Notes under the pieces: model-generated
Databases searched by the model: none
Told to the model about the DNA's origin: nothing
Seen by the model: the letters and a program-made list of their open reading frames with translations, nothing else
Program-made: the position numbers and the translations under genes
Assembly (NCBI RefSeq): GCF_037042905.1
Contig: NC_087251.1
Span: 1-64,000 of the forward strand
Reading direction: 5' to 3'
Length of the DNA: 64,000 nt
From: Lytechinus pictus
Lineage: Eukaryota
Shown here: one piece after another, positions 14,984 through 49,157 of the stretch
Layout: each line of letters starts with the position of its first letter
Numbering within the stretch: position 1 is the first letter of the stretch

Positions 14984-15024
<41 letters not shown>

Positions 15025-17709: not shown

Positions 17710-17818
17710 GCTGAACTTACGAACTTTTCGTTTCCCTGGATGTTAAATCTCTTGATATCCCCACTATACCAAAAGCACATGGAGACAATGGAATATTGCT
17801 TGTCCTTATCGTGCTATA

Positions 17819-18734: not shown

Positions 18735-18944
18735 TATAATGAAGGAATTCCCATTGTGTATTTATCTCTTCACCCAAATACAGACCTTGTAGTTTTACCC
18801 TTAAGCTTTTTGGTTCGTTATTGGAATAATCATCAGATTCTGGGCTGCTTAAAGGATCCCCTTGGATCAAGTAAGCTTGTATTAAAACAGAAAAATCGGA
18901 TAATAAGATCATTGAACGTTTGGGAACAATTGGACAAATATTAA

Positions 18945-22060: not shown

Positions 22061-23663
22061 TAATGTACCAAAGTTTAAAGCATTCTGAATGATATGCTCC
22101 TGTATACAAAGACAAGTAAGAGTTGAAGGCAATAGTTACCACCAAAAAGTAAAATACAAACATGTAAAGCAATGTCCCTGAAAGACACAATAAAAAGCTG
22201 ATGAATAAAACATCACTGTTTGCCAGTATCATTGCCATTGTGTTCTTTATGCCACCGTTAAAATGATTCGATAGAAAAGGTCTAAGCTTTTTTATTTTTT
22301 AAATAAGGTGTACAGAAAAAAGGTCACAAAACTCGCAATATACAAACTGGGCATATTTATATGCAAGCGATAATAATTACAGCTTGTTTAATGTACGTAG
22401 GCAGAAAAAAAAGAGCATTACGAAAATAACTCAGATAACATAGGACGATGATAGATACATAAAATATGCTAAAGGATAAAACTTTTAAGCTATCCCTTTT
22501 TTCAATCCAACACATCTTCAAAACATTATCTTTCTTCAATTTTAAGCATCTTTTAATGAAAAAAAAATAAGCAAAACATATTCGTAGGCTGATTTGACAA
22601 ATGTTGAATGCAAAAAATGCAATATTTTTTTTTTTATTCTCGATCTCCTTTTCTTTTATCATTCTTCATACAGAAGAAACATAATTTTACTCTTATTCTA
22701 TCACGCAAATCTTGCATAATTCATTTATATTTTAAGGATAAAATAAAAGGATTTTTATTTCGTTTCATTCAAGATGCGAGCATCAGTCAGCCAGCGACCA
22801 AATTAAAAAATCTATTTCCCAGATATTATGTACATATTAATATAAATGTGTCCATTTTCAGATTATTTTATTTTTTATTTTTCGTACAAAAAAAAATGAT
22901 ATACGTTTCTGTGTCCGATTATCAAAAAAGCTACATGCAAAGGGAAAATGCAATATAATGAAGAAACAAAAAACACATTAAAACGTGTTATGCTTCTGAA
23001 AACTGAGTGTGTATATATTCTTCAGTGAAATAAACCTAAAACAGTTTACTTTTTAACAAAGTTTCAAATTACATGAATTAGTTACTTTATTAACCTGTTT
23101 TTAGCAAGCAAATGTTATTAAGTGATATGAAATTCCAATTACGCAAGAAATATATCACTTGTTTTGCCTATATTATCAAGATCATTCTGTTCATCAAAAG
23201 AACCTTTTATTTTCTCCTCTTATTCATGAGTTATTTTTTTTTAAAGTTCATTTTCCATTCGGTTTTCCATGCTATAAACCACTGAATATTTTCATCTGCT
23301 CTATTTTGTATGAAAAAAGTAGAGATTTAAAAATCATATACAAGCATGCCTTTTCAGGTATCTATGATAAGTAGAGCATAATAAGGAGAAAGCTATAGTG
23401 CATTTGCAATATAATAAAACCAAGGCCATAGTTGTATCATCTAGCTTCCTGTATTTGAAAATGATAATTCAGATCTAGTCTTTATCTGCTCATTTTTATA
23501 TGACAAGATAGATTCATTGATATTTTTTTATCAAAAAGGAAAAAAATTGTTTTGTGCACGTGATTCACTTGCCAAAAAGTTCATCTCTAATTAGGCTTCC
23601 AAGCAGGTAAGCATCTTCATCTGCTTTTGTTGTTGTTGTTCTCTTTTAAACATCACACATTAC

Positions 23664-24041
23664 CTCTGCCGTTGCACATCTCGGGCAACCGTTGCCAAGG
23701 ACCCAATGTTGGCCCTTACATCATCCGTTGCATCGAGTAAATGGTTTCCGATCAGCTGCGTGGTAGGGCCAGAGTTTATATCTTGGGCGGCCCTTTTCAG
23801 CCCCTGCCTTACCTGCAGCACTGCGGGGTGAGACTGATCCGTCGGGTGATTATGGGCAACACGCCCCTGGGGGTTGCCATAAGCTGGTGGTCCATCTGTG
23901 GTTATTGCCCCACTACAATGGGAACTCCGCTGAAATTCGCACTGCCAGCGAATTTGTCCTGTTTGTAGGCTTCTTTTTTTACGTAAAGAAACCCTTCATG
24001 TCCGAGTTTGACCCCCCTCTGATGTTTTCGATTATTTTCAT
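23664..24041 (-). pseudogene. First exon of a FLYWCH-domain MULE (Phantom-like) transposase, absent from the ORF track
   Basis: Manual translation with +1 nt in a G6 run (~24012-24017) and an A7 run (~23974-23980): MKIIENIRGGxKLGHEGFLYVKKRSLQTGQIRWQCEFQRSSHCSGAITTDGPPAYGNPQGRVAHNHPTDQSHPAVLQVRQGLKRAAQDINSGPTTQLIGNHLLDATDDVRANIGSLATVARDVQRQR, then AG|GTAATG donor. W-x-C-x6-C...HNH matches the FLYWCH finger. Downstream DDE exons not found. Confidence 0.8.
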
Positions 24042-26350
24042 TGTGTATGTATATGGAAGGCCGATAGTGCCAAAAACGTGAACTACCATACGTATGCTCA
24101 AAAAAGAGTACGTGTTCTTTGTTAAGAGTACGTGTTCTCCGTTAAGAGTACGTGTGCTCTAATGGACCAATCAGCGAGCTCGATTTGGGTTTTATGCACG
24201 CGTATGCTTTTACCATACGTCAGCTTGTAGCATACGTATGGTATATACCATACGTATGGTTATTTAGCGAATAGCATACGTATGCGCAGACTTTGGGTGA
24301 AGTGTTTGTGACTGTCCAATCAGAATCTCCGTTATAGCAGATCCTGTGCCAAACTCACTGTAGTGAATGCACGTGGTCGTCCGTGTCTGCCACTGAACCA
24401 CTGAAATATACCTCTACGTAGTGGTATAGATCAGTGCGCTGAGCGATACCACTAGGTAGTGTGTGCTTGTGTGTAGGGGGTATATATAGGATGTGTCAGA
24501 ATTGATCCCCCCCCCCCAAGAAAAAAGAGTGTAGGTTGCAGGCTGGAACTTAGTGGAGGAAAGATTTTATGCAGACAATTTATGCCCTATTCACCTCAGT
24601 ACTCTTGAGGATACCTCGGTTGTTATACTGGATGAAAATTCACCGGATTTTTGTTGTTTCACAACACTACTCGAATTGTGATTGAATCTAACTATACCGG
24701 AAGTACCTAATAATTTAATGATAGCCTTCCGTTTCTCAATAGGATTAAGGTCTGTTTCTATATCAAAATACTGGAAAGTTGTTCTTCCATCAGTCCTAGG
24801 TCAGTTTGTAGTATGGTTTGGGGCTCGATCCACCCTGCATATGATGAAGACGGTGGTATATCATGCGCGTATTCTGGAGGGATGGGGGCTTTAGGCGTAT
24901 TGTCAAAAGTGTGTGTGCGTCTTTACCTTTATATTCTACGGCGAACCCGCTGAGCGTGCCATTGTCCATTTTTCTTTCCTACGGGTCAGTGCTCTTGCCA
25001 TTCAAGACGCCAGCGTGCCCTTTTGCAGCGAAAACGGAAGCGTCCGCTTTTATCTTTTCTTTTGACACCCCCCGGTTGGCTCTCCGAAGATATGTTTTTG
25101 CATGAGCGCCCTCTATGTCCACGATATCGGTGTTTTAGGCCCGATCTCTAGTCACTGATCTGAATATCGTTGTGTCCTTGTATCGGTGTGCCTAGTCCAG
25201 TGGGGTATATATTTTCCAAAGTTACGCTTTCACAATTTCTTTTGATAATTTTTCGTTTCGGGTTTCAGTATATGACAAAGTTCAATTAGATTTAGATTTC
25301 ATTTCTTTAATAGAACAATTAAGCTTTAGCCCTTTAGCACGAGCATTTTTTTTTTTTGAAGAATATACCGTTAAGATATTGACTTTCTAAAAGTAAGTGT
25401 TCAAGCGCGGGTGAGATTTTATTTTATCACACTGAGCCCACACAGTCAGCATTGTCGGGTGAAAAGGAAAAATATGGAGTTGTCCTTAACATCTTTGTAA
25501 ACGAAATGCAAAGCCCCTCACAAAAGATGCTATATAAATCATACCTGGGTCCAAAAATGATGGCATTTAAATTTATACATTGAAACGCTACTGTGACAAA
25601 AAAAAATAAATACATAAGATGCAAGCTTTTTTTTGTGTGTGGAAAAAAGATGAACACTAAGGGCATCGTTGAAATTCAGATTTGAGCTAAACATAGGCCT
25701 ATATCTAATTTAGCCGAAGTGCACATCAATTTTACTCTTATTATACATGTTTAAAAATTGCCATGTTAGAAACTCATATATTCACACATAATACAGATGC
25801 CGTGCAAAACAAACGAATAAAATATCATTAATTTGAATGTTAAATATCAAATTGGATGCTCAAGCAGTCATATCGGTCATTGTAGATTAAATGCACAATT
25901 CTTGAATTTCATTGCCCGAAATTCAGAACAAAAAGTACTTTCGTTACTTTGTAAGACCATTACAAACATCTTTACCTTCGAACGAAATCAAAAGCACTTA
26001 ACAAATAAATATTGAAATTATCAAAGTTGAGGTAGTCTTGACCGTGAATTGAGTTGAGTGTTAATAAAGGAATCATAGCGTCTTCTAATGAATCCATTCT
26101 AAACTTTGAATGACCGATGAAAAATATCGCGTGAATTAAAATGCAAATTAACACATTTAAGTGACTCCGACATGATATCGAACAGGAAAACCAATATTAT
26201 CTTTTTACCTGGGATCCGTCTTTATTCTCTTATATAAATTTCCCCTGTGATCTACTATATGACCTAGTGTTTTTTATTACCATCCTGGAGCCACAGAACC
26301 GAAGGGGGTCTGGGGCTGAGGCCTCCACAAGTACCATGATTTTATGCATG

Positions 26351-27012
26351 ATGTAGTGAATCCGGGGGGGGGGGTTATCCGGCCCGTGCGCCCCCCCCCC
26401 CCCCCTTGAGAGCCATTATCAATTTTGTTAATGTAAATATGCCATTTTTACACAAGACTAGTGTGCCCCCTTTGAAACTCACAGCATGTATTTTAATGAG
26501 AATATGTCGTTCATACACAAGTGAAGACCTTCACTTTAGCTTAGTAAACACCCCTTTTCCAAATATATTTGGTTATTAAAATGCACAGAGAGATGGTAGG
26601 CAAAGAATATAACTCGAATGTTCATATTAAGAGTCAACCTATCAAGAGGGAAGTTACATGGTTAATTACAAATGTGTTGATAAAATATCACTCGAACGTT
26701 ATGTTATAATCTGCTTCGCCAAACAGTTTTTATGTAATATTGCTCTTTATAAAGGCAAGTATTAAACTACATTAAATGTCGAAATGTTGATAAATATAAT
26801 GGAAGCCATATTAAAATGCACATTACGAAAAGAAACAAAATCAAGGTTCTAGAATGGGGACAAAAAGAGAACAAGAAAACTACCAATTTGATGCTCATTT
26901 TAATTCCCCGATAGCCGGACGTTGAAAATGACATGGGCCAGCGCATTGCAAGCTGTATTTAACGGCTTACCCCATTGTCAAGGTAGATTTAAATGACCCC
27001 ATTCTTGATTGG
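26351..27012 (+). repeat. ~660-bp direct repeat, copy 1
   Basis: Colinear with 29113-29777 (ATGTAGTGAATCCGGGG...CCCCATTCTTGATTGG), roughly 90% identical by eye. Confidence 0.9.
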
Positions 27013-28801
27013 GGAGATTACCCTATATTCTTGAACATAGAGGTGGTCTGACTGGTGGCGGATTTCAATAGAAATGACCCCTTGATTGGTGGGGGTATTT
27101 CAATGGGAGATTACCACTTTGTCAGCGCGGGCGACTGTCTTGATACTTTGATGTTCCCCGATGTGTCTTCTATTCGAAAATCGTGTTTGCAACTAATCCC
27201 AATTATGAGACTATTTGGCATCAAAATGAAAGCCTAACAAAAAGAAAAAAAAAGAAGGGAAAAAAGAGAGGAGAAAAGGAATAGGGAAGGGAGGAAAGGG
27301 AAAAAAGGTAGCTTTGTGGTTTTTTTTTCTCAAAAGAGAAACTCCTTCACTCTTGCTCTAAATTTATATATGGATTTTGCTTCCGCGCTGCGCGCAGTTA
27401 AATGATAATATTGAAGTTCTCCATTGTTTCCCCCACCCTTTCTCTAACCCTGTTAAAGTTCAAATGTATACATTAGGGCATGGAATTAGAGTAAGGTTAG
27501 GCCGAAGTATATGAAGTTATCTTTTTTTTTTTTTTGATTGCGCAACTTCTGGACGGGTCGGCCCTTGGCGGGTAAAATCTTTATATCAATTACTGCCGTC
27601 ACCTCCATAAAGTAAACTTCTCCTGCTTTTCAGCTCATCACTAAACAACCATATTTTGGGGCAAACAGGTCCCTAATTTAAAAAGAGGAAGGTATAAAAT
27701 TCGTGTCGTATTAGATAGAAAAGTACAATATTTATTATCAAATTCTATTAAACTTCATGTCATTTCCCTGCACATTCATCTCCTGTCCTGTTTTGCGCAC
27801 TCAGTTTGGAATTTTGAATGACACTTACGGTTCTTTATAATTCAAAATGAAGCGCTCCAGGATAAGTCAAAGAAATAAGGCATCCTTTTTTATATAATTT
27901 CAATGAATCACAGAAGTTTCAACTTTTTGCGCACTATTTTCCTTGTAATGAAGTTCAATAATCTTATTGAATTAGACCTGATGGGGTATTAGAGATTTCT
28001 GCATTTGATGAAACGTCCGCCATTTGATACTTCAGAGTTTCATTGCTCTGCGCGGGGAGGAATATCTTCCTCCCGGCATATACACTTCTTCTCCTCTGTT
28101 TTGCGAGTTACGCACTATCGCTAAATTGTTTGTAATCAAATCTGATCTTTCCAAGGGAAGTATTCAATATGTCTTTGACAATACCCTTTTATCGGGACCC
28201 TTTTCATGGCAGAAACAAATTGAAAAAACGCTTTAGCCTCCGCGCTTCGCGCGGGGTTATTATTATTTTAATTTCCTCCATTGTATTCCTTTTTTATGCG
28301 TTCGCTCACAATCACTTTTGAAAACAAGGTTCATGAAAAAAGGTTCAAAATCACAATATTGTCAACTGAATTGGAGCTGATACTAGAGAGACGGCTCCTT
28401 TTCATTTTAATTTATGAAACACCAAAAGCTTCGCAAAGGGAGGGGGAAACTCCCCCTCCCTGCACCCACCCCCTAGGGAGCGCGCTTCGCGCGCTCCGTA
28501 GGTGTTGGCACGCTTCGCGTGCGATTACCGCCCCCTCCAAAATGAAATCCTGGCTACGCGGTTGTCTTCTTCCTATCAAAATTAATCTGCAATGTGTGTG
28601 TGTCAAATATTGCAAATTAGATTCCCAGTGTCTAAGGTAAACATAATTTACCGACGTAAAGTTAGTAATACGAAAGCCTCTTTGGCCTATAGTTTTCCTT
28701 CCAACTTTTTATTTCACCTCTTAATCGTATAGCTGCATTCTGTATAGCTTGCATATTTAAATATACAAAATAAAAATCAATAAACGTACAGGAAATGGTA
28801 A

Positions 28802-28929
28802 TACCTCGGTCACATTTGCTCTACGGCGGCCATACGGCGAGTCGAAAACAGAAACCTCCTATATTTAGCTGGTACAAAAACTTAAAACGACTGTTTTCGA
28901 CTCGCCTTAGAACAAATGTGACCGAGGTA
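28802..28929. mobile_element. Short internally deleted MITE
   Basis: TACCTCGGTCACATTTG...CAAATGTGACCGAGGTA TIR plus inner GGCGAGTCGAAAACAG/CTGTTTTCGACTCGCC inverted pair. Confidence 0.7.
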
Positions 28930-29112
28930 TTTGGCATACTAGGTCAACAAGGATGGAGTGCATGCGGGTGCGGATCCTGCCGGAGTAACACAATACAATC
29001 CAATAGGCGCCGTATAAACAATAGTTGGGCTGTCAAAAGTATTGTGGTCTATATTTTTACCTCTATAAAAAGAAGTCAGTGGGTCTATATTCTGCACCTG
29101 GAGGGTACAGAT

Positions 29113-29777
29113 ATGTAGTGAATCCGGGGGGGGGGGAAGCATCCGACCGGTGCGCCCCCCCCCCCCCCATTTGAAAGCCATTATCAATTTTGTTAATATA
29201 AATATGCCATTTCTATACAAGTTTGCCCCCTTTGAAACTCACCGCATGTATTTTAATGAGAATATGTCGTTCATACACAAGTAATGACGTTCACTTTTGC
29301 CTGGTAAACACCCATTTTCCAAATATATTTGGTTATTAAAATACACAGAGAGATGGTAGGCAAAGAATATAACTCGAATGTTCATATTAAGCGTATACCT
29401 ATAAAGAGGGAAGTTACATGCTTAATTAAAAATGTGTTGATAAAATATCAGTCGGAAGTTATGTTATAATCTGCTTAGCCAAACAGGTTTTTTAATATGT
29501 AATATTGCTCTTTATAAAGCCAAGTATCAAACTACATTAAATCTCGAAATGTTGAGAAACATAATGGAAACAATATTAAAATGCACATTACGAAAAGAAA
29601 CAAAATCAAGGTTCTAGTATGGGGACAAAACGAGCACAAGAAAACTACCCATTTGATGCTCATTTTAATTCCCCGAAAGCCGGACGTTGAAAATAAAATG
29701 GGTCAACGTATTGCAAGCTGTATTTAACGGCTTACCCCATTGTCAAGGTAGATTTAAATTACCCCATTCTTGATTGG
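29113..29777 (+). repeat. ~660-bp direct repeat, copy 2
   Basis: See copy 1 at 26351-27012. Confidence 0.9.
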
Positions 29778-32700
29778 AGCACAAAATGTTAATAATCAGA
29801 CAATAAAAAAATAAATCTTTACAGAACACTTTTTTTTAAATGATTTCAATTTCCGAGCTGAAATATGTTATGTGTATTGACTTCAAAATTTGATATTTTA
29901 AGTTCCATATGTGTAAATCACCTAAAAGGCAATGCGAGCGCGAAGCTTGAGCGAAAATGTTGTATAATGACATGAAATAATTTTAAAAAATTGTTTTCGA
30001 AGTCTTTCCCTCCTCTTATTTATTCAATAGTTTTCCTCCTCCTATGTTTTTTTTCTCTCCTCTCCTCTCATTTCCCTTTTTCCCTTTTTTTTTTTTTTTT
30101 GTCTTTCTTTCCCCCGGCTTTTTGCTCCGCCAATAGAGGAAGGAGGGAGGGGGCAAGCCCCTTGCCCCCCAGGATCCAACTCTGGAAAAATCTACCAGAA
30201 AGTTATAAACAGGCAGATTCAAAAGAGAAATTAAAATCCGTGTTAAAACTTTTTTTTTTTTTGGGGGGGGGGGGTTAAATAGCCTTTCCCGCCGCATTTG
30301 AAGCCCCTCTACGTTTTTCAGCCTACTGTGAACTGTGCAATTACTTTAATTTTTGGTGAAAATTAGATGGCCATCCATTCTCTCTCTTTTTAATCGAAAT
30401 ATAATCTATGTATTTCAGGATCATGATTATGAAAACCTTTTATAACAAAAATGATAAAGGAAAAACGCGTCTCAAGTTGTACATGGTTCATTGCTGCATA
30501 ATATACCAATCATCTTCATTTGTTAATATTCAATCATCAACATTATCACTGATATTATTATTCGCATTATCATGTCCGTTAATATCACTTCAAAGTTATG
30601 ATTACTATCATCATCACTGTTATCATCATCATCACCATCATCATTCATTCATTATATATTTCCAATCGTTCTCCAATATCAATTTTATATTTTATATAAT
30701 TAAAAATATATGAAAGATAATGGTAATGACTATGGTGATGCTGGTAATCATGAATATTAGATCCGTTACGTGAGATAATTTATGCGATTTTACACGCTAA
30801 TCGCTACTCGATGATGGTGAAAGAAATCTTTTAAATAGCACAAAAGAAGTCGGGGCGGTAGTTACTACACGTACTTTATTACACTATATTATTACCAAAG
30901 ATTCCCCATCGGACGGGCCAACGGTCTTTTGAAGTAGGTTCATCTAATCACGACAGCGGATATAGGGAATTAAAGTCTGTGAGCGTCTCCCATTGTTTTC
31001 TGTGGCGAACCCGCTGAGCATGCTATTGTAAATGATTCTCTACTATACGGGTGAGTGATCTTGCTTTTTCAAGATCATAGGCCTGGGCAAAAAAATATGA
31101 AAAGTTCTATGAGTATCAATGCCAAGCAATCCTGAAAGGTCAATAATGTTCAATTCTCTTGATGGAGAAGACTATAATTTATCATGGCCCTATTTGCTTT
31201 TGCTTTTAGGCCAGTAAGTGTACTAACTAATATAAATAATAATTACATTCCATTTATTTTAGAGTAATGATCTAATGTTGATGTTACCTATTCTACATTA
31301 TCTCCCTGCAGCTTTTTGTTACCATTTTGTCATCTTTTAATTTATTTCCCACCGTGCTTTTGCATTACATAGGCCTAGTTCGGAATGATTTGTTCTTTCT
31401 CAAATGTTTTTCTTTCGTACATTTTCCCGCTTTCCTTCCTTTTCCATTAAAAATGTTTTTTTCTTCGTTTTCTTTTCCCTTTCCCTTTCCTTTTCCTCCT
31501 TTCCTTTTCCCCTTTCCTTCCCCTTTCCCTTTCTTTCTACCTCCCTTTTATCTTTTTCCCGTTTTTCTTTTATTTTCCCGGTGAAATCCGCCAGGGGGGG
31601 GCAACTTGCCCCCCCCCCTGCCCCCCCCCCCCCCCCCGCCTGTTACGCCACTGGCTACGGCATGGTCTTCTGATTCGTGTGAAATTAAATCGACGGGTTG
31701 GCTCCCCCACAGTCATTCCAATCGGGCGGAACGGGTAATTATCATAGGTCCAAGAACTCATGGGCAATGGCAGAGCTAGGGAAGCGATCTGCAGATGTAA
31801 GAGGGTTTCCTGTTTGCAATTCTCCCACTCGATTTTTGTCACTTGTATTTCTTATTAATCTTTTTACCTCCTCATTTCTTTATTTCCTTGCATTAATTCT
31901 TCTTCCTTTTATCTTTGAATCTTTAATCCATTTTTCCGTCGCCGCAAATAGGAGCCCGCTTCAACCCCTATAATCATGTTGCTTTTGTTATCTTTCCTAT
32001 CCTGATAATTACTGATGTGGTATAAGTGCTATAGGTTCCTACATTAGCAATTCGATAACTATATTTCTTCGGTACACGATTTTCCCTTTCTCTTTCTCAT
32101 GTTTTTCTTAAATCTTAGTAGTTATTTTTTTTTTCTTCTCTCAATTTCTTTTCACTCATTTTCCTTTTTTATTCACTTATTTTGCTCTGTATATCTTTTC
32201 ATGAAATATTGCTAGAAGGGGTTCGCAATCAGATTAAAGTTGCGGCCAATTTAACTCCGAGCTTTTATGCTTCATTTTTCTTCATTCTCTTCTTGTTACC
32301 TGAATGAACAAAGAATAAAGAACCGTTTCAGCATGGCCACTCCATGTCTAATTCCCCTCTGTTCCCCTTTCACTCTTTCCCTTCCCCCCTTTATTTCTCC
32401 CCCATCGTCCACCAGCTCTCTCTACTTCTTTCCCCTTATTTTCTGTCTCTATCCATTTCCATATTATTTTGTCCCCCCCCCCTCTCCCGTTGATTATCGA
32501 TCCTAAAATTCTTCCCCTTTCAAATTTCCTTTTTTTTCTCTTTCAACTGTTTTCCTCCATATTTTTGTTCACCCTTCCTCTTCTTCCATCCCAATATTAT
32601 TTTCCTATTTCTCTCTGTTTCCCCTTCATTTTCTTTCCCTATGACTTGTTAGTTTTCTTCTTCCTCTTTTCACCTTCCCTTTTGGTCCCGCTTCTTTAAA

Positions 32701-33645
32701 ACAAGGAGATAAAGAAATTATCCCGGGGAAATGGTTGCCCGTCCAAAAATTGAACAAACTATTAAAAACAGTTTCTAATAAATCTTTGATATATCTATGC
32801 GTAATAGTGTCAAGCTGTTCCGGTCATATTTATTTTATCATTCTATTTCCTTCTGTCCTTTTTTTTTTGTGGGGGGGGGGGGGCTCCCGACATTTGTTTC
32901 AGATGCGAGTTATAATGAACATTACAAATTGACGTGAATTCTACGAATGGCTTAGGCCTACGAAACGAAAATGTGCGGAATCTTATTTTCCCACCTAAAA
33001 CATCATGAATTGACTCTCTTCCAATTGCAAAAAAAAGAGAGGTTTTCATGGTTATTGCAGCAAATTCGAAAGATCCGTATCGATTTATGACACGTGTGTG
33101 ATTTTTTATTAAGCTACCGTGGCTTTATGAATGCACCCGAACTTCCATTACAGACATGATAGATGCGAACCACAGTTCAGAACAGTGACCCGAACTCTCC
33201 GATCCGACAGTCAATATGAAGGCACGCATTTGTTTTGGTCGTAGAGGGAGCTATTTAGAATAGATTCTTCGGTATTTCGACAGGAATTAAGACTTGCAGG
33301 AAAGACGAACAAAAGAACGGTGGCATCAATGGGCCTTTGATGGCGGCCGTTCCTTTGAAGAGAAGGGAACGTTGGGCAGGAAAGCCGAAGCGAAAACCCG
33401 GATGCAGGAAAGACGGTATAGAACGGTGCATGGACTTTTGACAAGCTCCCTTAGGGTCCCTGGCCCCCGGGGTAGTAGGCGAAAAGGAGGCGGCAATAAG
33501 GGGAAGGAAAGAAAAAAAAAGAAAAATGGAGAGAAAAAGAGGGAAAAGAGGGAGGATAGAGAGAAGATATAAAGGAGAGGGAAGGGGGTGAAAGGGGGGG
33601 GAGGGGAAAGAGAGAAAAAAGGCGAACAAAAAGGAAGAGAGAGAG

Positions 33646-34342
33646 AGGGTGCCAAATTGAGCTGTAATGAGGGGGCGCCAAACTGACTTTAAACTTTGGA
33701 GGGAGCGCCAAATTGATGTTCTACCTAGTGGGCACCGAAATGATATTCAACGGGGGGGGGGGGCGCCGCCAAATTGATATTCCACTGGGGGCGTCAAACT
33801 GACATGTAACGGGGGCACCAAACAGACCTTAAACTTGGGGGCGCCAAATTGATGTTTGACCTGGGGGACGCCAAATTGACTTTCAATTCTTTTTTTCAAT
33901 TCTTTTATTTCATTTCCATTCAAAACATAATACAAAGTAATATAAAGTAATACAAATCAAGTACAATTTTACAGAAGGGCATTCTTACTTCGTAAAAAAA
34001 ACAGAAAATAACGGTATAATATAGAGCATAAATGGAAATGAGGGGGATCCACTAAAAAGCAAATCTTGTAAATTGTGGATCCCCCTTGGACCTTAAACTT
34101 AGGGGCGACAAATTGTCCTGTAAGGAGGGCGTGCTGAACTGACCTTAAACATGGGGGCGTCAAATTGATGTTCCACATAAGGGGCGCCAAATTGATGTTC
34201 GACCTTCGAGGGGGGGGGGCACCAAATTGATATTGGATCTAGGGGGCGCCAAATTTACCTTAAACACAGGGGCGTCAAGTTGATGTTCCACCTAGGTACG
34301 GTAAGTTATGTTGTTCGACCTAGGGGGCGTCAAATTCACCTG
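33646..34342 (+). repeat. ~29-bp minisatellite in two blocks
   Basis: GGGGGCG(C/T)CAAA(T/C)TGA(TGTTCCACCT/CCTTAAAC) units at 33646-33880 and ~34085-34342. Confidence 0.8.
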
Positions 34343-34385
<43 letters not shown>

Positions 34386-34521
34386 CCAAAGGATGGAAAA
34401 GAAAATTTTCCTCTTTTCTAACTGAGCCTATACATGTCATTTCCTTTCCTCTTTTTTTTTATGTTTTATTGAAATAAATCAATATAATTACATATTTACA
34501 CGATTGGAATGAGTCGAAATA

Positions 34522-37500
34522 CAGTGCCGGCCGCGGGAAACGTCACAGTGCCCCCTAGGGCGAACGCGGTAGCCCGTAGCGGACATTTGAGGGGAGCGGA
34601 CGAGGGAAGACGCCCGCGTCCGCTCCCCTAGGACATGAGTGCCCTCGGGGAGCGCCCGCGTCTATCCTAGGGTGTTTCCCTAGGATGTTCTGCCGTGCAT
34701 TCTTGGTCGAAAGAGGTGGTCTGATTTGACACATTCGTTCAAGACTGCATGTGATTTTTATCTCATATCAAGCATAAGTTTTCGATCATTTATCGTGGAT
34801 AAAATCTGTTATGAAAATTACAAAGTTTTGGGTTGATAACTGGGGTTTTAGGCTTTTTCACCGAATGACTTATTGTGTTCGATTACACACTGGCACCAGC
34901 GTAAAGGGTCCATTCCTATGAATATTCTTCCCGTGGTGTCCGTTATTTCATTCACTGACACGGTTAGCCGTGATCGTAAATGAGTTTCTGACAAAGGAGC
35001 AGGTATTTGTCGATTTTGACCCTACATTCAGGAGGTCGTCCTAGAACTATTTACTCTATTCTTTCCCTGCATGGTCATCCTTTTTTTATATACCCTGACA
35101 TGCCTTTCAGGCGCGGATCTACGAGATGCAGATAAAAGGGAGAAGAAGAAAGCAAAAATGAAAGAAAATGCGAAAAGGAAGGGATGGATTGAAGACGAGA
35201 AGGAAAGAGATAAGAGAAATAGAACAAGTGAGAGAAGGGGAAAGGGAAGAAAGAGAAAATAGAGGGGGGGGCGAATAGGAGAAAGAGGGAGAGGGGGTAA
35301 AGAAAAGAAATAAGATAAAGGTGAAATGGAGAAGAAAACAGAGGGGATGAAAAAAGGGAAGGTGAGACAGAAAGAAAAGAGGGAAAAAGAGAAAAGGAAA
35401 ATAGATTGAAAATCGAAGGGGAGAAGAAGAGACAAAGGAAGAAAAGGAAGAAGGACATAATGAGAAAGAGAGAAGGATAAGGAGGGAAAATTAAATAAAG
35501 TGAAAAAGGGAGACATAATAAAATGGAGTAAAAAGGTGGAGGAGGGAAGAGAAGGAAGGGTGCAGGAAAAGGTAAGAAGTACAGGGGACAAAAGAAGTGG
35601 GACTTAAGAAAAAGTAGAGGAAAAGAGAGAAAGCGGGAAGAAAAATTTGGGAAATTGTCCAGTTTATCATGTCAGAAAATACTTTAGTTATTCGCATCTG
35701 CCCATTTTTACGCTGATGACAAATATTGAACATTCTTGCGCTCAATCTTGTAATTATTTTCTCTCACCATGCTCACAATTCCTGCTCTCGTTGCATCAAT
35801 TAAAAACTTGTCCCGAATTAACATCCGCTCATTCAAGAAAGAAGAAAGAAAAAGGAAAGAAAAAGGAAAAAACGAAGGGATGGAAGGAAAATAGAAAAAG
35901 TGAGAGAAGGAGAAGGGAGCGAAGAAATGAAGGGGAAAAGGGAGAAAGAGAAAATAGGGGGGCTTATTGTTTCATGGTAATATGGATACCCTATAGTTCT
36001 GCAGTACTTAGTTATGAAACTTGTTTTACTCAGTAATGCTCACGCGTGATGATTAAAGGGATTTTCGACTATATAGAGGTGAACCGGGACGGGGCTTTCA
36101 TTCATTAACTTGGCTTGACTAACTCCTTTGTTCCCCGGAAAGAATTGTTAGGTTTGATAGTTAGCGTTTGCGTGAGCACCCACCAAAACTCTTAACAAAA
36201 GAAAAGAATGGTTTGTATAGCTCCATTCTTGCTTTGTCGGCAAGTGATAATTAACTCGTTAAGTACCCATTCCACACACTACGTCATAGTAGCTTTCGAA
36301 AACATACTTTTACTTGGGTATGTGTTTAAACATTGAAGCTAAATGTGCTAAAAAAAATAAATAGTTACATTATGTAAATAGCTTTTGTTGCTTTGCTCTG
36401 AAGCGCATTGAGCATCCAATCAAGATGGAAAGTGTGCTTTACAAATATCATGTATTATTATTTTTAGCTGCCATATAACACTGAATTCTGTATTATACCA
36501 AGTTGTGACTTGGTTTTATCATTTCCAATTCATATAACAAAATATATTTCGAAGGAAAATCTTGCTTTACTGAAAAAAAAAATGTTTATAACTTTAATTG
36601 ATGTCCGACTAATCTATCAATATAAAACCGCAGTTCGTAAATATGATAGTTTAATATTAACTCCGACGTCAAATATTTGTGTTATTATCATCATGTATGT
36701 ATATCAGGGATATTAATATTCGTTTTAATCCCATCTATAATTTTGTATAAAATTACGCGAAATATATGCGTTGTTCTCATCATGAAGCTGGAACCCCTCT
36801 TCTTGCTTCTCCTTTATTATTTCCACCACTTTCATCTCTTCCCAATTCGAATATCTACCAATGTAACTTAAAAACCGCAATAGAGAGCTGTTAATGTGAT
36901 AAGATGTTTTAGCAAAAAGATAAATCTGTTACATCTGTTACATTGAGGTAAATTTATACTTTTATAGGGTGAGGGTTTTAGAGACCCGATTTGAACCGAA
37001 ATGAAAAGAATATCCTCATTTATTGTTGCTAACGCATCAACAAATTAATCCCCCCCCCCCCCCATTTCTATGAACATCCTGTCATAAATTGGGAAGCGGA
37101 TGTGATCAAAGGAGATCAAAGGTGTGGGGTGGGGAGCAAGACTCTACCAGACTATTGACAATAACAAAAGAACCAAATAACAAATCGATGAGCACAACCA
37201 GTTTTGCTGGCGTTCGCTTTTGCACGTCTACTTTGTATGATCTTGGTCATACTAGTATTCGTTTTCAACGTACCTTTCATTCCCTTTATTAGGGTTTTAT
37301 CAACCATGTCAACGAATTGACGATCCCAATATTGACCGCACGTTTGTTTTAACATAATGAGAATTCGCAAATGCCCTTGATATTCATAATTCTATTTTAT
37401 TTTAAGTTTGTCATTAATGTTTGTTAACATTCACTCTGTTAATAACTTTTCAATTTTGATTTACCAAAAAAATCAAGTCTGCTTATTATTGTCTTTTATC

Positions 37501-38716
37501 TATTAAATTTTTTTTTTTTTTTGATATGCCTTTCTTTCTTCTTTCCTAATTCCACCCTGTGCACCCCATTAAAACTCAATGAAGAATGTTTCAAATGTTA
37601 TCTAGTTCTTACACTGTTCATAAGGAGATGGGATTATGTGTATAGTTCACGCTGAAGGGAGAGGAATTGGTACGTATGGGAAAAAAAACTTATCCCAAAA
37701 GATAGAGAATTGATCTCCATGACATTAAATCACAATTGTGTCCTATTTTTTAAAACAAGTTTGTATGATACATGTATGTCTCCCACGTAAGGCGTAAGGA
37801 AAAAAGTTTACCTAATGCATCAAATTAGATTAATTGTTTAGATTCATTGCGGTAAAAGAAAAATAATAAATTCGATGTTCCAGCCAGGGTGACCAGATTT
37901 CACAAAATTAAATACGGGACAATCGACAAAGTACTATGTACCATCGGATCGACCGAGCCAGGCCAAAAAATCAACAAAAAGGCTACACAATGTTAGACTT
38001 GTTAATGTAATATATTAAGAAAGGGGAAGGGAGGGTGAGCAGAAGAAAGAAAAGAGAAAAAAATGAGGAAACAAGAAATGATTTGAGAGGAAAGAAAAAA
38101 TAAGGAAAAATTAAAAGGAAAAAAGTTTGAATAAAAGGATGAAAGAAAGAATAAAAGACAGATAACGGTTTCCGTCATTACTTGAAATGAATAAAGAAAG
38201 AAAGAATTAAAATAAAGGAAGGAAAGATGAATAAATGTTTGAAAGAAAAAACATAAGGAGAGAAAAGAGAAAGAAAGAAAAAGAATTCCTTCATTATTTA
38301 AAAGAAACAAAGACAGAAGAAAACAGGAAGGAATCAAAGAAAGAAGAAAGGGAAAGAAGGAATAAGGGAAAAGAATTAAAAAGGGAAAACGTAACTTAAA
38401 AAATGAAAGAAAAGAAAACAAATAGCATCTAAAAAAAAAAATAATAATCTACAATAGATTCCAATCACGCTACTTTAAAAACATAATGGTCTATCACAAG
38501 ATAACCAAAGTACATGCACATGTAAACATAATGCATGGTACGTATCCTAGGGTTCCCTAGGATAAGTGCGGGCACGGCCAATATTATAGAGCACGCAGGA
38601 GACTGCGGGCGCGGCTAAACGCCCTAGTCTGCTCCCCTTGAATACCCTCGGTTAGACGCGAAAGCCCCCTAGGGTGTTTGCGTGCTCGGGCGTGACGTTT
38701 CCGGAGGCGGGCACTG
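34522..38716. mobile_element. 4.2-kb TA-flanked DNA transposon nested in the 21-kb element
   Basis: Imperfect TIRs CAGTGCCGGCCGCGGGAAACGTCAC and GTGACGTTTCCGGAGGCGGGCACTG, TA on both sides, GC-rich subterminal regions with repeated CCCTAGG. No transposase recognised. Confidence 0.7.
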
Positions 38717-39299
38717 TACGTACATAATGTACAAGGTAATTTCCTCTTTATCTTCCCACTTTTCTTCCTTTTCTTTTACTTTTCTGTCATCCACCTCTCT
38801 CTTATGTTTCATATTTTTTTCCAAATATATACCCTTTTTTCTTTTATTTTTTGTCTTCTTGTTCTCTTCCGTGTTCCCATTTTTATTTTCCCTTTTTTTT
38901 TTTTTTTTTTTTTGGGGGGGGGGGGTGGTGACGCCTATCAGTCCCTAGATCTGTTATCCATCTTTATCCTGTTCGTTCCCCTTTTCCTTACCCCTCCTCT
39001 CCCCCCCCCCCTATTTCTATCTCTATCTCTCTCTCTCTCTCTCTTCCTCATGAGGGGCAGGCGAAGGGGATACCCCTCCAGTTTCACTGGATCCGTTTCT
39101 TTATCTTCAAATTCTCTCTCCCATTTACCTTTTTCTTTATGTCTTATATCTTCCTTTTATGTTTGTCTTTTTTCCGGGGGGGGGTAATGGCTCCTCTGGA
39201 CCCCGGATCCGTTTGTCTTCTTTCTCTTTTTATTATTATTATTTTTTTTTTTTTTTTTGGGGGGGGATCCCCGGATACGTTTCCCTTTCTTTAACTCTT

Positions 39300-40952
39300 T
39301 TTTTTTAACACAGTGTTAATATGCTTTGTCCATTTCATAAGTGGGTCAATAGTAACTCCAAGATATTTTAATCTATCTACGTTTTCCAATTTTAGATTTT
39401 TAGATGATATATGAATTTTACATATATTTTTTTTATTTTCTGTACTGAGTCAAATACCATAACTTTGGTTTTGTCGACGTTAATATACATTTCGTTTTTG
39501 TCCAACCACTCATTAATCATATCAAACTGTGATTGTAAATAATGTTCCAAATTCTCTTCAGTTTTTGTTTTACAAAATATTACCGTATCATCAGCATATA
39601 AAGCGAGTTTTGAAGATGGTATAAAATCTATATTGGCAATATCATTTATGAAAATACTAAAAATCAATGGGCAAAGGGTTGAACCCTGATGGATTCCTGT
39701 TTTACTATTAACGAATCACTTAAAGTACTATTTATTCAAACACGTTGTATCCTGCCTGTGATGTATGATTTAAACCAATTATATTCATTTTCTTTTATGC
39801 CATAGCATGACAATTTCTTTAACAGTTTCTCATGCGGTATAACATGGAATGCTTTACGGAGGTCTAAAAACACACCACCTATTATAAACCCACTGTTAAT
39901 ATTTTTAATATATTCTGAAATATCAAGAAGGCAAGAAATGGTCGAGTGGAAATAAAGGCCGAAAACATGATTGGTTGTCAGCAGTGGCGTACCTATGATT
40001 TTTCAAGGGGGGGGGGTCAAATTCGTCCGCCAAAAAAATTGACATGCAAAGAAAAAAAAGGTCTTCAATCACAAATAAAGGATTTCGCACCAGAAAAAAA
40101 AATTGACAAGCAAAAAAAAAAAAAAGTTTTCTAGTTCAAAGGAGCGGTCCACTTGTGGCTCGTCAGGGATCAGTTGTGACTCGTCGTGGGGGGGGGGGGG
40201 CAGGGATACATCCCTTGCATGGGTTGTGACTCGTCAGAGTGGCAGTCTGCCCCCTCTGCCCCCCCCCCCCCCCCCCGTAGGTACGCTAATGGTTATCAGT
40301 CAATAGAGGATGCTCATTTAAATACTCATATAACTGTTGGTGAATTCGTTTTTCTAATATTTTACTTGGTATTGACAAAATAGATAATTATGGGTCTATA
40401 ATTCATCGGTTGAGTCTTATCGCCACTTTTATATATGGGTATTATTTTTGATAGTTTAAAATCATTGGGTACACTGCCTGTTTTAAGTGAAGAGTTATAT
40501 ATATATATGTTAGTGGTTTAACAATGATAATAGCAGCAAATTTTAACAACGTAGGATGTAAGCCATCAAGACCGTATAGGCTTTACGCGTATCAATACTA
40601 TTCAGTTCTTTTAATACAAAATCCTCTGTAATATCTGAAAAAGAAAAGGTATCCTATGTGGTTGGTACATTTTGCATATAGTTGTCATCAGTATGTACAT
40701 CATGTTGGCTTTGCGTACTGGAGCCCTTTATTTTATCTGCGAAACTATTAAACATTTGATTTAATACATTACCAATTTCTACATTGTTTTCGATTTTCAC
40801 ACTTTCATGTTCTATCTTAAAAAATTATTTCAGACTCCGACTTTTTGGCTTGTAGGAGTTCTTTTATTACTTTCCATTTTTGTTTTAGATCATTTTTCGC
40901 GAAATCTTTGAATTTGTTACAATAATATTCCCGTTTCGACTTTTTGTTCCTA

Positions 40953-41008
<56 letters not shown>

Positions 41009-41150
41009 ATTTATTATATATTTATTATATTCTTTCCAAAAATATTCAATTTTTTTATATCAAAAGTACATTTGCATTTATCAAATTTTGCTTTGATCTC
41101 TATCTCTTGAAAGTAACAAATAATCATCTGTTATGAAATGTTTACTTAGA
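39300..41150 (-). mobile_element. Heavily decayed LINE RT fragment
   Basis: GVFLDLRKAF (~39850-39880), GIHQGSTLCPLIFSIFINDI (~39640-39700), LYADD (~39590) and INVDKTKVM. Interrupted by a MITE. Confidence 0.85.
39982..40291. mobile_element. hAT-like MITE
   Basis: CAGTGGCGTACCT...AGGTACGCTAATG; 8-bp TSD GTTGTCAG/GTTATCAG. Confidence 0.8.
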
Positions 41151-41620
41151 AACACATTATTCTTCAAGATTACCAATAGTGTATAGAGTGTCCAGTTTGA
41201 GGTCGGAAAATCAATTTTTTAACTCGCACTTCGAGAACGCGTCGATTGTTGAGATAATCATACTCATGATTGCAAATAATGCTCATAACCTCTAGTTTTC
41301 ATCTCAGAAAATAGGAAATTATTAATAATAAATTATAATATTTAGGGAGGATTTTTCTTGCAAAAAGGTTTTAGACTGCTGAGGTTGACTATATTGAAAC
41401 AGAGAAAAAAAAATAACCGACGCACCTTTATGGGGGGGGGGGGCACGTGCACGTGGCCCCAACAAATTTCGTGTGCCCCCAGGTGCCCCCCTAAAAATTT
41501 GATGGATGCCAAAAAAAAGCGGAAACAATCATATTCATTTTAGACTTTTTATTGTGTCAAAAATTTCCTTCGTAAAAGATTTCCTTCTTCGATTAACATC
41601 ACCTGCCCTCTTGTATGGCG

Positions 41621-41877
41621 CACTAGCGTACCTACGGGGGGGGGCAGTCTGCCCCCCCCCCCTGACGAGCCACAACCCATACAACAGACATATCCATGCC
41701 CCCCTGACGAGCTTGAAAGACCTTTTTTGCCCCCCTGACGAACTTGAAGACCTTTATTGCCCCCCCCCCCCTGACGAGCTTGAAGGCCTTTTTTTTTTTT
41801 TTTTTGCTTGCTTGTCAGAAATTTTTGCCGGGCGATTTTGCCCCCCCCCCCTGTGGAAAATCCTAGGTACGCCACTG
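41621..41877. mobile_element. hAT-like MITE, same family
   Basis: CACTAGCGTACCT...AGGTACGCCACTG; 8-bp TSD GTATGGCG/ATATGGCG. Confidence 0.82.
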
Positions 41878-42929
41878 ATATGGCGCACATCTCGGGCCCC
41901 TGCTACCGGTATACCTGTATCTTTCCCATATAGGCGTATGAGCCCGGGGGTGTTGGCCCCCAAATATTTTATAAATTGATGATAATCGGGGAACCTGGGT
42001 CATTTGCAAATATTCGGGAAACAAAGTGCTAAAAATATCCTCAAAAATTTGGAGTAATTTTATATCTGAATGCACATGTATTCATATTCATACGCTTTTA
42101 TAACCAACTTTTCTCACTTGCTCTTAATAAAATCTAAAAGGCTGATATTCTGGCAATATTGATATTGTTAAGCCCTCCCGCCCCCCCCCCCCCTCCCCCA
42201 CAAAGGTGTGCTCGTACGCCCGTACCCACTCACCGTACACAAAACTACTTTGGGGATTTTGCAAGAAGGGGTAGCGCTTTTGTCGGTGCCAAAATAAACT
42301 CAAATAATCAATACCATATCACACTAATCCCTTTTTTATGAAATAAAGGAAAAACACTTAACTATATATATAAATATTTTAAATATACAATTTTCAAAGC
42401 TTGCTCCCTCCATTCTCTAGCACTCGTACATTCTCTTCAAGTTGTGACATTGTATTTAACTTTTATATGCAGGAAATGTTCACGAGGACATAATGTAATT
42501 TTAGATTAACATGCTTTCCCTATAACTCTTGCTTTTGATATCCCAAAATCCTCCGAATCTCTATCAGACCTGGGAGGGGAAACGCCCGCATTTCTTCTCC
42601 CGGTCGCATTGCAGTTTAACAGTCATTAATCTGCTAAAAATTGATCATTTATTATACCACTTTAAAGTCATGCTTTATTACAATATCCACAACTTATATT
42701 CCATTCCGGAAAACTGCATGGCTTGTATGTACTCCCTGTGTCTCTCAATCGTCATTTCATTTCCTTACTAGACATGGCTATTTATACTTTGCGAAGCGTT
42801 CGCTCGTTCGCACATTTAAGTGAATTGCATGGATTCTTGCCTAATATACCCCCAATAAAACTGACTACTTGTGCTGTTGGTTAACGGGAATAAATTTCTG
42901 CTATTCTGGAGTATTCCATTCGCACACAA

Positions 42930-44655
42930 AGACGCAGTACAAACATGCATCAGAAAACTTTTATTGAGACCCCAAATGCAACATTTTCCCTGCCCTGAGA
43001 TGGGGACACCCCTTCCCAGACACTCCACCGCTCGGTCGCTCTGCTCCCTGGCAATGTTCTCTTTCAACGATAATATCTTCTTATCAGGAGTACATCACAC
43101 ACCACATAAAAAAATTACAACACAAAATATGCACAGAAAGCATGTTTTTCTGACAACAAAATATTCCCCTGCTCTGGGAGAGGGACCTCTCCTCCCAGAA
43201 ACTCACCCATCCGGTCCCTTCGCTCCCTCACATTTTTTCTTCCAACAATTCCCGCTTTACAGAGTATGTCATTATTCATATCAATATAATCACAGCACAA
43301 ACATGGTTCAAACAGGTTTATTTTTGAGACGCCTAAATTATTTTTCCCTGCCGCTGCATAATGGGGACACCGTCTCCCACACACTCCTACGTTTGGTAGC
43401 TTTGCTCCCTTGCAATTTATTTTATTTTTTTACAGATAATTTCCACTCTTGAGTAGTACTTAACACACCGCATAATCACATCACAAATGTGCACCAGAAA
43501 TCTTGTTTTTGAAATACAATGCAAAATTTTCCCTTCTGTGGGACACCCTCCTCCCAGACCACCCCCCCCCCCGCTCGGTCGCTTTGCTCCCTCGCAATTT
43601 TTTTCTTTTAACAATACTTCCACTATTGAATAGTACATCACACACCACATAATCACATCACAAATATACACCAGAAATCTTGTTTTTGAGATACAATGCA
43701 ACATTTTCCCTGTTGTGGGACACCCCCCCCCCCGCTCGCTTTGCTCCCTCACAATTTTCTCTTTTAACAATACTTCCACTATTGAGTAGTACATCACACA
43801 CCACATAATCACATCACAAATATGCACCAGAAATCTTTTTTTTTTTTTTTTTTAGATACAATGCAAAATTTTCCCTTCTGTGGGACACCCTCCTCCCAGA
43901 CCCCCCCCCCCCCCGCTCGGTCGCTTTGCTCCCTCGCTATTTTCTCTTTTAACAATACTTCCACTATTGAATAGTACATCACACACCACATAATCACATC
44001 ACAAATATACACCAGAAATCTTGTTTTTGAGATACAATGCAAAATTTTCCCTGTTGTGGGACACCCCCCCCCCCGCTCGCTTTGCTCCCTCACAATTTTC
44101 TCTTTTAACAATACTTCCACTATTGAGTAGTACATCACACACCACATAATCACATCACAAATATGCACCAGAAATCTTTTTTTTTATTTTTTTTTAGATA
44201 CAATGCAAAATTTTCCCTTCTGTGGGACACCCTCCTCCCAGACCACCCCCCCGCTCGGTCGCTTTGCTCCCTCGCTATTTTCTCTTTTAACAATACTTCC
44301 ACTATTGAGTAGTACATCACACACCACATAATCACATCACAAATATGCACCAGAAATTTTGTTTTTGAGATACAATGCAAAATTTTCCCTGTTGTGGGAC
44401 ACCCTCCTGCCAGACCCCCCCCCCCCCCCCGCTCGCTTTGCTCCCTCACAATTTCTCTTTTAACAATACTTCCACTATTGAGTAGTACATCACACACCAC
44501 ATAATCACATCACAAATATGCACCAGAAATCTTGTTTTTTTTTTTTTTTTTAAATACAATGCAAAATTTTCCCTTCTGTGGGACACCCTCCTCCCAGACC
44601 ACCCCCCCCCCCGCACGGTCGCTTTGCTCCCTCGCAATTTTCTCTTTTAACAATA
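42930..44655 (+). repeat. Tandem repeat of ~155-185 bp units with alternating A/B variants
   Basis: ATCACATCACAAAT anchors at ~43474, 43652, 43808, 43993, 44149, 44331 and 44503; ~3 degenerate units upstream. Confidence 0.92.
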
Positions 44656-45819
44656 ATAGATCTCTATTTAGCAGTATGTGCATAATATGCATTATCATAC
44701 ATACATTGCGCACTAGCAATCGCGCTTCCGAACTTCAATGAAAGGCTTCATGTGATTGGTCAAAGTGATAAGAACGAATATCAGAATGGACTGAGCATAC
44801 GTATGCTTTTAGCTGACGTGAGATATTAGCATACGCGTTCTCAACTCATACGTATGCTACCAGCTGACGTATGGTAAAAGCATACGCGTGCATAAAACCC
44901 AAATCGAGCTCGCTGATTGGTCCATTAGAGCACACGTACTCTTAACGGAGAACACGTACTCTTAACAAAGAACACGTACTCTTTTTTTAGCATACGTATG
45001 GTAGTTCACGTTTTTGGCACTATCGGCTTTCCATATATGTACACTGTACCAACGCCTTGTCTTCACGTAAGACGTACACGCTGTGTAATGAAAATGACCC
45101 CCCCCCCCCCCCTCTCCCCGGCAACGCGCTCTAACACCCATGCCTATATCCCATCATACGTTCCTCGACGCTCCTAGAAAAAAATCGCAGTGGGACGCCC
45201 CAAGTTCCAGGGAATATCATGGGCGTCCACTGGCGTATAGATCGGGGCGGCTTGGGGGCCATGTGCCCCCAAATAATTCACGACCAAGAAAAAAAGAGAA
45301 CAAGATAGAAAATGAAATGGAAAGGGTGAAATGGTATATTATTTTATGAATATTATGTCAAACTCTTTAAAAAAAAATCGATTTCTGTATTAAAGATGTC
45401 AAAAATTTTGCTCGCTCGCTCGCATCTGGCTAGAACTATTGTTCCATCAGCCAATTTTGGCTCATTATGCCACTGTGAGGGTCAGACCAGTGGGCATATA
45501 AATGATCCCAGCTCGCATATTGCGCTATTTAGTAAGATACGGAACATGATTGTGTGTTCTTTTTTAATTGTTCCGTTTTCATAACCTATGAAAAAAAGTT
45601 TCAGCTTACCTTACATGTAGCTCCCCCATAATTTAATTGGCGAGATACGTATCCTTTTGATTGATTTCTGGAACGGATATCAAAATATTTTGAAATATTT
45701 AAAAACAAAATGAAAGGAAGGAGAATGAAATATAATACAAATAATACTACTATTAATGATAACAATAATGATGATAATAATAATAATGAAAATAATAATA
45801 ATAATAATAACAATCATCT

Positions 45820-46510
45820 GGTTGGCTATAATGCGCTTAAGACATTGTATGTATCTAAGCGCTTACATACCCATCACCCCGGTCATCATTTAAAACAGCT
45901 ATTCCCGCACACAACGTATGCACATCCTCCACTCCCTGGGGAGTATTCCAGCCTGTCACTGATGAGGCGCACACAATGCACGACAAGCTACAATGACTTT
46001 CACATCTTACAATTTAGCACCTGGGTTGAGAATGGCAAAGCGTGAATTAACGACTTGCCAAAGGATGCTACACCGCGGTGGAAATCGAAAACACGACCCT
46101 TTAAGTACAAGACAAGAGTCAGAACCGCTTCACCACACCACCACTAGCGTACCTAAGGGGGGTGGCAGACTGCCCCTCCCCCCTGACGAGTCACAACTCA
46201 TGTAGGGGACGTATCCCTGCCCCCTGACGAGTCACAACTGATACAGGGGACGTGCCCCCCCCCCCTTTTGAGAAGCCAAATTAATAATTTGTAATGTAAA
46301 AATGCAATGAAAACCTTTTTTTTTTTTTTTTTTTTTTTTTTGCTTGTCAAATTTTTTGTGTGGTAAGAAATGCTTTATTGTGGTTGAAGAACTTTTATAT
46401 TTTATTTTATTTTTTTGCTTGTCACATTTTTTCGCGGACGAAATATCCTCCAAAAATTTGCCCCCCTTCTGGAAAATCCTAGGTACGCCAGTGCACACCA
46501 CGACGCTTCA
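45820..46510 (-). mobile_element. tRNA-derived SINE with its head interrupted by a MITE
   Basis: Minus-strand decayed A box and B box (GTTTTCGATTTCC) at ~46075-46135, followed by CCTTTGGCAAG and CTCAACCCAGGTG core-like motifs. An (AAT)n tract lies at the tail side. Confidence 0.65.
46142..46493. mobile_element. hAT-like MITE, same family
   Basis: CACTAGCGTACCT...AGGTACGCCAGTG with a perfect 8-bp TSD CACACCAC. Confidence 0.88.
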
Positions 46511-46682
46511 ACTTTAAACTTTAGTCTTTAGTTAGGACTAACCCTATAAAGAATAATAATAAAAATCCGCTTTTAGCGGCTGATCGGCGAAAATGTGGAT
46601 GAAAACGTCCCCCCCCCTTCCCTATTGGCGAAAGCTTGGTCCACTCCTTGAATATGTCTCAAGTTCACGATCACAATATTTC

Positions 46683-48824: not shown

Positions 48825-49157
<333 letters not shown>

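Follow-up and report, generated by a model that had tools for sequence, protein, structure and literature searches.

IS3EU transposons have TA..TA ends and usually 6-bp target-site duplications (TSDs), and they form a single lineage with GingerRoot (PMC10045372); fungal members terminate in TAYGG..CCRTA (PMC12730594). GingerRoot elements of Selaginella have terminal inverted repeats (TIRs) of 100–150 bp and lengths of 3.9–12.9 kb, and 22 of 77 elements contain gene fragments, mostly without a transposase (PMC6839031). Here, we analyzed a TIR transposon at the start of contig C7 in the 812-Mb genome of Lytechinus pictus, within the first 64,000 bp of the contig (hereafter the window). The element occupies positions 24052–45035 (20,984 bp). 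It is very probably a gene-less copy of a low-copy, ~8-kb family of the IS3EU/GingerRoot type, into which two high-copy transposons likely inserted afterwards, enlarging it from 8.2 to 21 kb.

The family resembles the described systems in its TAYGG..CCRTA termini, in its 6-bp TSD of no fixed sequence, in the order of magnitude of its TIRs (189 bp compared with 100–150 bp in Selaginella), in a core of 7–10 kb that falls within the GingerRoot size range, and in that its copies have lost the transposase and carry acquired DNA. In contrast to Selaginella, where host-gene fragments were acquired, the acquired DNA consists of a relic of a long interspersed nuclear element (LINE), MITEs (miniature inverted-repeat transposable elements) and a satellite. 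Moreover, copies reach 21–33 kb, and 68.5 kb in a sister element, which exceeds the sizes given for Selaginella, where the TIR distance was limited to 30 kb; and none of the copies in which both ends are present (paired copies) encodes a transposase. The papers found on giant non-autonomous DNA transposons with nested insertions concern plants and algae.

Ends and target-site duplications of the family

The two TIRs are 189 bp long and 98.4% identical, with three mismatches at positions 8, 48 and 175, close to the ~185 bp and ~98% given by an earlier sequence-only reading of the window. As that reading also described, the left and right subterminal regions differ from each other beyond the TIRs, and the ends carry arrays of short repeats. 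CATACGTATG occurs at seven sites, none of them more than 250 bp away from an element end, and nowhere else in the window, and AAGAGTACGTGT is found three times in each TIR. These subterminal palindromes are putative transposase-binding sites.

Two genome searches for the family ends yielded 34 and 30 matches. Both termini are present in seven copies with sizes of 7,227, 7,748, 7,933, 9,430, 9,616, 20,984 (the window copy) and 33,004 bp. All seven terminate in TATGG..CCATA, and five of the seven are flanked by perfect, mutually different 6-bp TSDs (TATGTA, GACGAC, CTCCAC, GGTCAG and CATGTA). The combination of TA..TA ends with 6-bp TSDs therefore indicates IS3EU, and the TIRs are well above the >30 bp expected of this group. 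The ends and TSDs of the family are the signature of IS3EU/GingerRoot and not of Sola1, a superfamily suggested by the sequence-only reading. Its description of a large non-autonomous TIR transposon was borne out.

A shared 8.2-kb core and two nested transposons

The core comprises 8,232 bp (window 24052–24893, 33451–34521 and 38717–45035) and is colinear at ten other loci. The window copy forms a star with C9a, C9b and C11 at a substitution of 1.1–1.3%. Distances from the window copy are larger for C3 (1.6%), C6b (2.2%), C6a and C8a (~3.5%), C2c (4.4%), C7b (5.5%) and C8b (6.0%). The TIRs are better conserved than the interior, with C8b differing by 1.1–2.6% in the TIRs and by 6% inside, a pattern that would follow if mobility were retained only where the ends are good. 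TIR identity is no clock for the insertion of a DNA transposon. The contrast drawn earlier between young TIRs and a much older interior is not maintained, as the interior has multiplied together with the TIRs; nor is the interior old as a mobile unit, with the core at 1.1–1.3% from its nearest sisters and insert 1 (see below) at 0.98% from another copy.

The rest of the element consists of two gene-less transposons (inserts 1 and 2, Table 1), which together account for 12.75 kb or 61% of its length. Both belong to abundant families, with ~250 (insert 1) and ~175 (insert 2) candidates genome-wide. PIF/Harbinger transposons have a TWA TSD (PMC4482050), and Tc1/mariner transposons a TA TSD (PMC6839031). 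In agreement with this, insert 1 of the window has TTA at either flank, and TTA or TAA is found to the left of three other copies; for insert 2, the TA duplication is shared by the window, C6b, C17 and C11 copies. The PIF/Harbinger label of insert 1 is based on its TSD and ends. Ends of the CAGTG type, as in insert 2, are typical of Tc1. The two inserts thus match non-autonomous PIF/Harbinger and Tc1/mariner elements in their TSDs and are gene-less at 8.6 and 4.2 kb, respectively. A full-length copy of insert 1 on C4 is 0.98% diverged; its right-end TSD was not recovered by pattern and is not claimed. Insert 1 also contains the ~10%-diverged duplication noticed earlier (26351–27012/29113–29777, 90.9% identical).

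Both insertion sites are empty elsewhere in the family. The insert-1 site shows a single TTA target in 9/9 testable copies, and the insert-2 site a clean single TA target in 10/10. Likewise, in four junction searches, in each of which the best 40 of 174–252 candidates were scored, the window alone spans the junction. The earlier expectation that the interior would be colinear at other loci consequently applies to the 8.2-kb core, found at ten of them, and not to the 12.75 kb that are private to the window arrangement; what had been taken for a 21-kb payload is 8.2 kb of shared sequence plus two nested high-copy transposons. Separately, a member of the insert-2 family has landed independently in another family copy (C6:27348311-27352589), at the window-equivalent position ~24697.

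Table 1 Features of the element and its host repeat in the window
Feature	Position	Strand	Remarks
Left TSD, TATGTA (6 bp)	24046..24051	+	single copy in paralogous empty sites
Left TIR, 189 bp, starts TATGGAAGGCC, with three AAGAGTACGTGT and CATACGTATG palindromes	24052..24240	+	
Core segment A, left subterminal, common to family copies; ends in TTA target of insert 1	24241..24893	+	
Insert 1, 8,557 bp, gene-less, PIF/Harbinger-like, GG..CC ends, imperfect TIR around TTGTCAAAAG, TTA TSD	24894..33450	.	
Core segment B, short degenerate repeats at 33647-34341; ends in TA target of insert 2	33451..34521	+	
Insert 2, 4,195 bp, gene-less, Tc1/mariner-like, CAGTG..CACTG ends, TA TSD	34522..38716	.	
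Core segment C, common to family copies	38717..44846	+	
LINE relic	39305..41134	-	reverse transcriptase (RT) frames 39739-40002 and 39395-39715
MITE-like insert 1 (MITE1), inside LINE relic	39982..40289	.	found in 6 further copies; C7b empty
MITE-like insert 2 (MITE2)	41624..41878	.	in C9a, C11, C3, C6b; empty in C6a, C8a, C8b
Subterminal satellite, ~170-180-bp units	42935..44655	+	unit number varies between copies
Right TIR, 189 bp, terminates GGCTTTCCATA	44847..45035	-	
Right TSD, TATGTA	45036..45041	+	
Host repeat, left part, with broken FLYWCH open reading frame (ORF) relic	23627..24045	-	ATG at 24041
Host repeat, right part, upstream of FLYWCH relic	45042..46900	-	right limit provisional

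Search for the transposase

Pfam detected no transposase in the window element, where 131 frames (≥50 aa) were scanned, and the sequence-only reading had recognised none either. The genome contains 89 matches to PF24764 (rva_4). Twelve rva_4 loci were scanned for the family TIR, and only the one on C18 has it; three of the twelve are enclosed by TAYG..CRTA ends that have perfect 6-bp TSDs, and the C13 locus became a fourth once extended. The linked transposase is provisionally labelled IS3EU on the basis of PF24764 together with the TAYG..CRTA ends and 6-bp TSDs at these four loci. A tblastn search of 60 frames from rva_4 loci against the family regions revealed transposase similarity at C18 only. 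There, a broken rva_4 (PF24764, E 3e-34) is joined to a stretch that corresponds, at 92% identity, to bases 88–291 of the family left end. The locus (C18:2008756-2010468) is built of about four tandem ~408-bp repeats of the IS3EU transposase exon and the truncated family left end, and rva_4 pieces form a comparable decayed array at C4:22.36–22.40 Mb.

The closest relatives of the C18 rva_4, at 70–80% protein identity, are found in elements on C13 and C19. These are mutually 98.8% identical, have open rva_4 exons with D-34-E spacing, and their ends start with TATGGAAAGCC. The C13 element (C13:6324011-6392532) spans 68,522 bp and has a perfect CCGCAG TSD and a tandemly doubled left end; it is large partly through an element of the insert-1 family. 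The C19 element is a partial twin of the C13 element from C19:4532194 onward, and no right end of it was found within C19:4518000-4597999. A further sister pair of ends lies 33,070 bp apart at C5:48690221-48723290 with an AACCAC TSD, and another at C8:18.97 Mb is without a TSD.

Repbase groups non-autonomous elements that have the same TSD length and whose positions 1–11 align with at most one mismatch (PMC4455052). The ends of the window element match those of the C13 element at 10/11 and 11/11 positions and the TSD length is equal, so that this rule places it with an element whose TSD is 6 bp long and whose rva_4 exons are open. A 24-base end pattern gave 49 matches, with 0 in the reversed control; because the window and C19 ends served to construct it, that it finds both is no independent result. 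An IS3EU transposase supplied in trans likely moved the ~8-kb element, and the mobiliser could be either a C18-type enzyme that is now broken in the assembly or, working in trans, the sister enzyme of C13/C19. For biochemistry, the latter transposase, which is open and has known ends, offers a ready substrate pair.

Altogether, the element represents a new, well-resolved family within a known superfamily and has grown by ordinary nesting; the family may already be in Repbase. The gain is a modest one, namely one more IS3EU family of non-autonomous elements, for which empty sites, a tree of the copies and a stepwise record of accretion are at hand.

Order of insertion and alternative explanations

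Later nesting is favoured because the sister copies of ~8–10 kb form a star and both inserts are private to the window. The core would have inserted first, presumably by cut-and-paste chemistry, and the two unrelated high-copy transposons would have followed. Alternatively, the inserts might have entered an IS3EU-type donor, the whole 21 kb then jumping in one cut-and-paste event. With its TIRs and TSD intact, the composite is structurally able to move, and smaller inserts did travel, as MITE2 is present in five related copies and empty in three more distant ones. Furthermore, copies of 33.0 kb in the family and of 33.1 and 68.5 kb among the sister elements also have perfect TSDs, and no very close copy of insert 2 was found among the five compared. 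However, neither insert, singly or together, occurs at these sites in 9–10 other copies or in the four junction searches, and the star of the window copy, C9a, C9b and C11 is what a burst from a single ~8-kb master would produce. Moreover, the private extras differ from one large family copy to the next: C8a has a triplicated LINE-bearing unit, C6b and C7b have other inserts. A single jump of the 21-kb composite is therefore unlikely. We also regard as doubtful the more general idea that IS3EU transposases tolerate very long donors, nested transposons becoming cargo and composites of 21, 33 and 68 kb jumping whole. If true, these transposases would tolerate size to an unusual degree, and each event would reshuffle repeats over tens of kilobases.

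Several observations weigh against an ~8-kb IS3EU-type element that was enlarged after its insertion. Two of the seven paired copies, C9a and C9b, are without a TSD. Insert 1 (0.98%) and the radiation of the core (1.1–1.3%) are of about equal age, so that their order is not dated, and insert 2, which differs by 3.2–4.8% from the five copies compared, is older than expected of a last arrival, although at least 174 candidates exist. The depth of the junction searches, as given above, limits the statement that the inserts are private. Concerning the superfamily, the ends resemble those of the C13/C19 elements over no more than ~24 terminal bases, with 17 matches in the first 25, and a 300-bp local end alignment with C19 scored 63, inside the range of 300 shuffles (maximum 67). 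Finally, no intact transposase was found between exact family TIRs, where the earlier reading had proposed to look for one; the broken cluster on C18 is the only one among the 89 matches to PF24764 that lies near a family end.

Insertion site

Since telomeric CCCTAA repeats occupy window positions 3–9695, the element is subtelomeric. It is inserted in a host repeat with 31 other matches in the genome, of which the best 14 were read at the insertion site. A single TATGTA running into the right flank of the window is found in 5/14 paralogs, one of which matches this flank for four bases and then continues into another insert. In 7/14 paralogs the TATGTA is present without its last two bases, and in 2/14 the site is deleted across. 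Except for a 350-bp insert at 46144–46494, the right part of the host repeat is colinear with its paralogs. Empty sites, as anticipated in the earlier reading, do exist; the specific empty allele that it predicted appears in 0/14 paralogs, the single TATGTA in five taking its place. Five sets of public contigs contained 9–10% of the sequence words; four of them, aligned to 22000–27000, included no contig bridging either junction and were not used as evidence.

These sites bear on the superfamily proposed earlier, that is, a Sola1 element with an AWWT TSD or an element with a TA TSD and TGG..CCA ends, in either case loaded with old host genome over 21 kb. ATAT can indeed be read at both window junctions, AWWT is the hallmark of Sola1 (PMC3845634), and TA flanks TGG..CCA in all copies. 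However, this ATAT consists of three terminal bases of the element and one TSD base at each end and is not duplicated in other family copies, so that the boundaries are 24052 and 45035 with a TATGTA TSD instead of 24051 and 45036. Four other copies also have 6-bp TSDs outside TA..TA. Counting the window copy, this holds for 5/7 paired copies, and the empty sites contain neither an extra TA nor an extra ATAT. As in Sola1, the element is a TIR DNA transposon; unlike Sola1, its TSD is 6 bp long and variable. The interior does not fit old host genome either, with no host-gene domain in the 131 frames and 61% of the length made up by two high-copy transposons. Overall, we consider this explanation highly improbable, and the correction concerns a misreading of the TSD that would misfile such elements as Sola1. 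Equally hard to sustain is the notion that two independent solo ends flank resident subtelomeric DNA that never moved: solo or chimeric family ends exist (C2a, C2b, C18 and C6b) and the window is a repeat-dense subtelomere, but the flanks join seamlessly in the host-repeat paralogs, the element has a perfect TSD, and six other paired copies on four contigs contain the 8.2-kb interior between the same pair of ends. Nor are the ends short independent MITEs.

At the left end, a FLYWCH relic begins just beyond the element (profile match E 4e-4, below the Pfam cut-off). On the minus strand, its ATG is separated from the element by 10 bp and not by 13 bp, as stated before. The ORF is disrupted by frameshifts or stops in the window and in 12/12 paralogs in which the ATG was found. 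As it was already broken in every paralog read, insertion beside this ATG is unlikely to matter.

Smaller interior content

Following a low-complexity filter, the sole Pfam match above the cut-off in the 131 frames was RVT_1 at 39395–39715 (E 7e-15), which confirms the decayed LINE seen in the sequence-only reading. Another RT frame scored below the cut-off, as did two frames in the satellite; the two Spore_YabQ matches in the latter were rejected as composition artefacts. Two MITE-like inserts and a satellite, both kinds of repeat also reported in that reading, lie in the core as well (Table 1). Free relatives of the LINE, ~82% identical, are found at C19:5.23 Mb and C8:39.01 Mb, both without MITE1. 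Because the presence of the MITEs fits the copy tree, the small nested inserts travelled with the core; the presence counts omit copies without an anchor. Accretion may thus have proceeded from capture of the LINE to MITE1, then MITE2, and then the large copy-specific inserts.

The question of host cargo was addressed with the same frames. No host-gene domain above the Pfam cut-off was found in the frames, all of them 50 aa or longer, and the exon-like relics suspected earlier matched no Pfam family. Rfam gave 0 matches on 23000–46500. Two stretches of the core were compared genome-wide for a source of cargo: 40300–40940 has repeat relatives only, and all 13/13 other matches of 41900–42900 are in family copies, with no donor locus. 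Hence, in place of the old genomic payload proposed before, the interior is composed of other repeats and 1 kb that is found inside family copies only. The 21-kb element is likely an ordinary nest of transposons and no carrier of old host DNA. Pack-MULEs are comparable as non-autonomous TIR elements that multiply interior DNA unrelated to transposition (PMC6839031). The present family differs from them in its 6-bp TSD and in that no parental host gene was identified. TSDs of MULEs are usually 9–11 bp long.

Neighbouring observations

TATGGTGGGCC ends and subterminal arrays of 22 bp mark a second family, whose chimeras with the present one are found at C2:63348442, C2:63314042, C9:23445727-23457799 and C6:27362892. 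In the C2 and C6 chimeras the join is at the same place, at about base 165–170 of the TIR, which suggests one insertion into the TIR that subsequently multiplied. Two other family copies, at C11:22829808 and C9:24757131, are inserted in copies of one host repeat, ~21 bp apart and in opposite orientation; target preference or local hopping is a possible cause.

Within the window, a 15-bp GGCGGAGCA-type array element occurs at 15146–17700 and, inverted and 32 kb apart, at 46684–48168, bracketing the transposon, and a third array of this type is located at 17361–17700. Next to the telomere, 9700–12380 is a degenerate satellite with units of ~400–570 bp, and an internal telomeric tract of 112 bp lies at 14923–15034. 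On the minus strand, 19276–21452 is LINE-like, with endonuclease- and RT-like frames broken by stops, as read by eye. Three fold-back or MITE-like inverted pairs with arms of 69–580 bp are found at 17815–18738, 54741–55662 and 55676–57502. At 48825–49157 on the plus strand, a 110-aa frame with a transmembrane-like stretch may be a host exon. Its product presumably resembles InaF-motif proteins.

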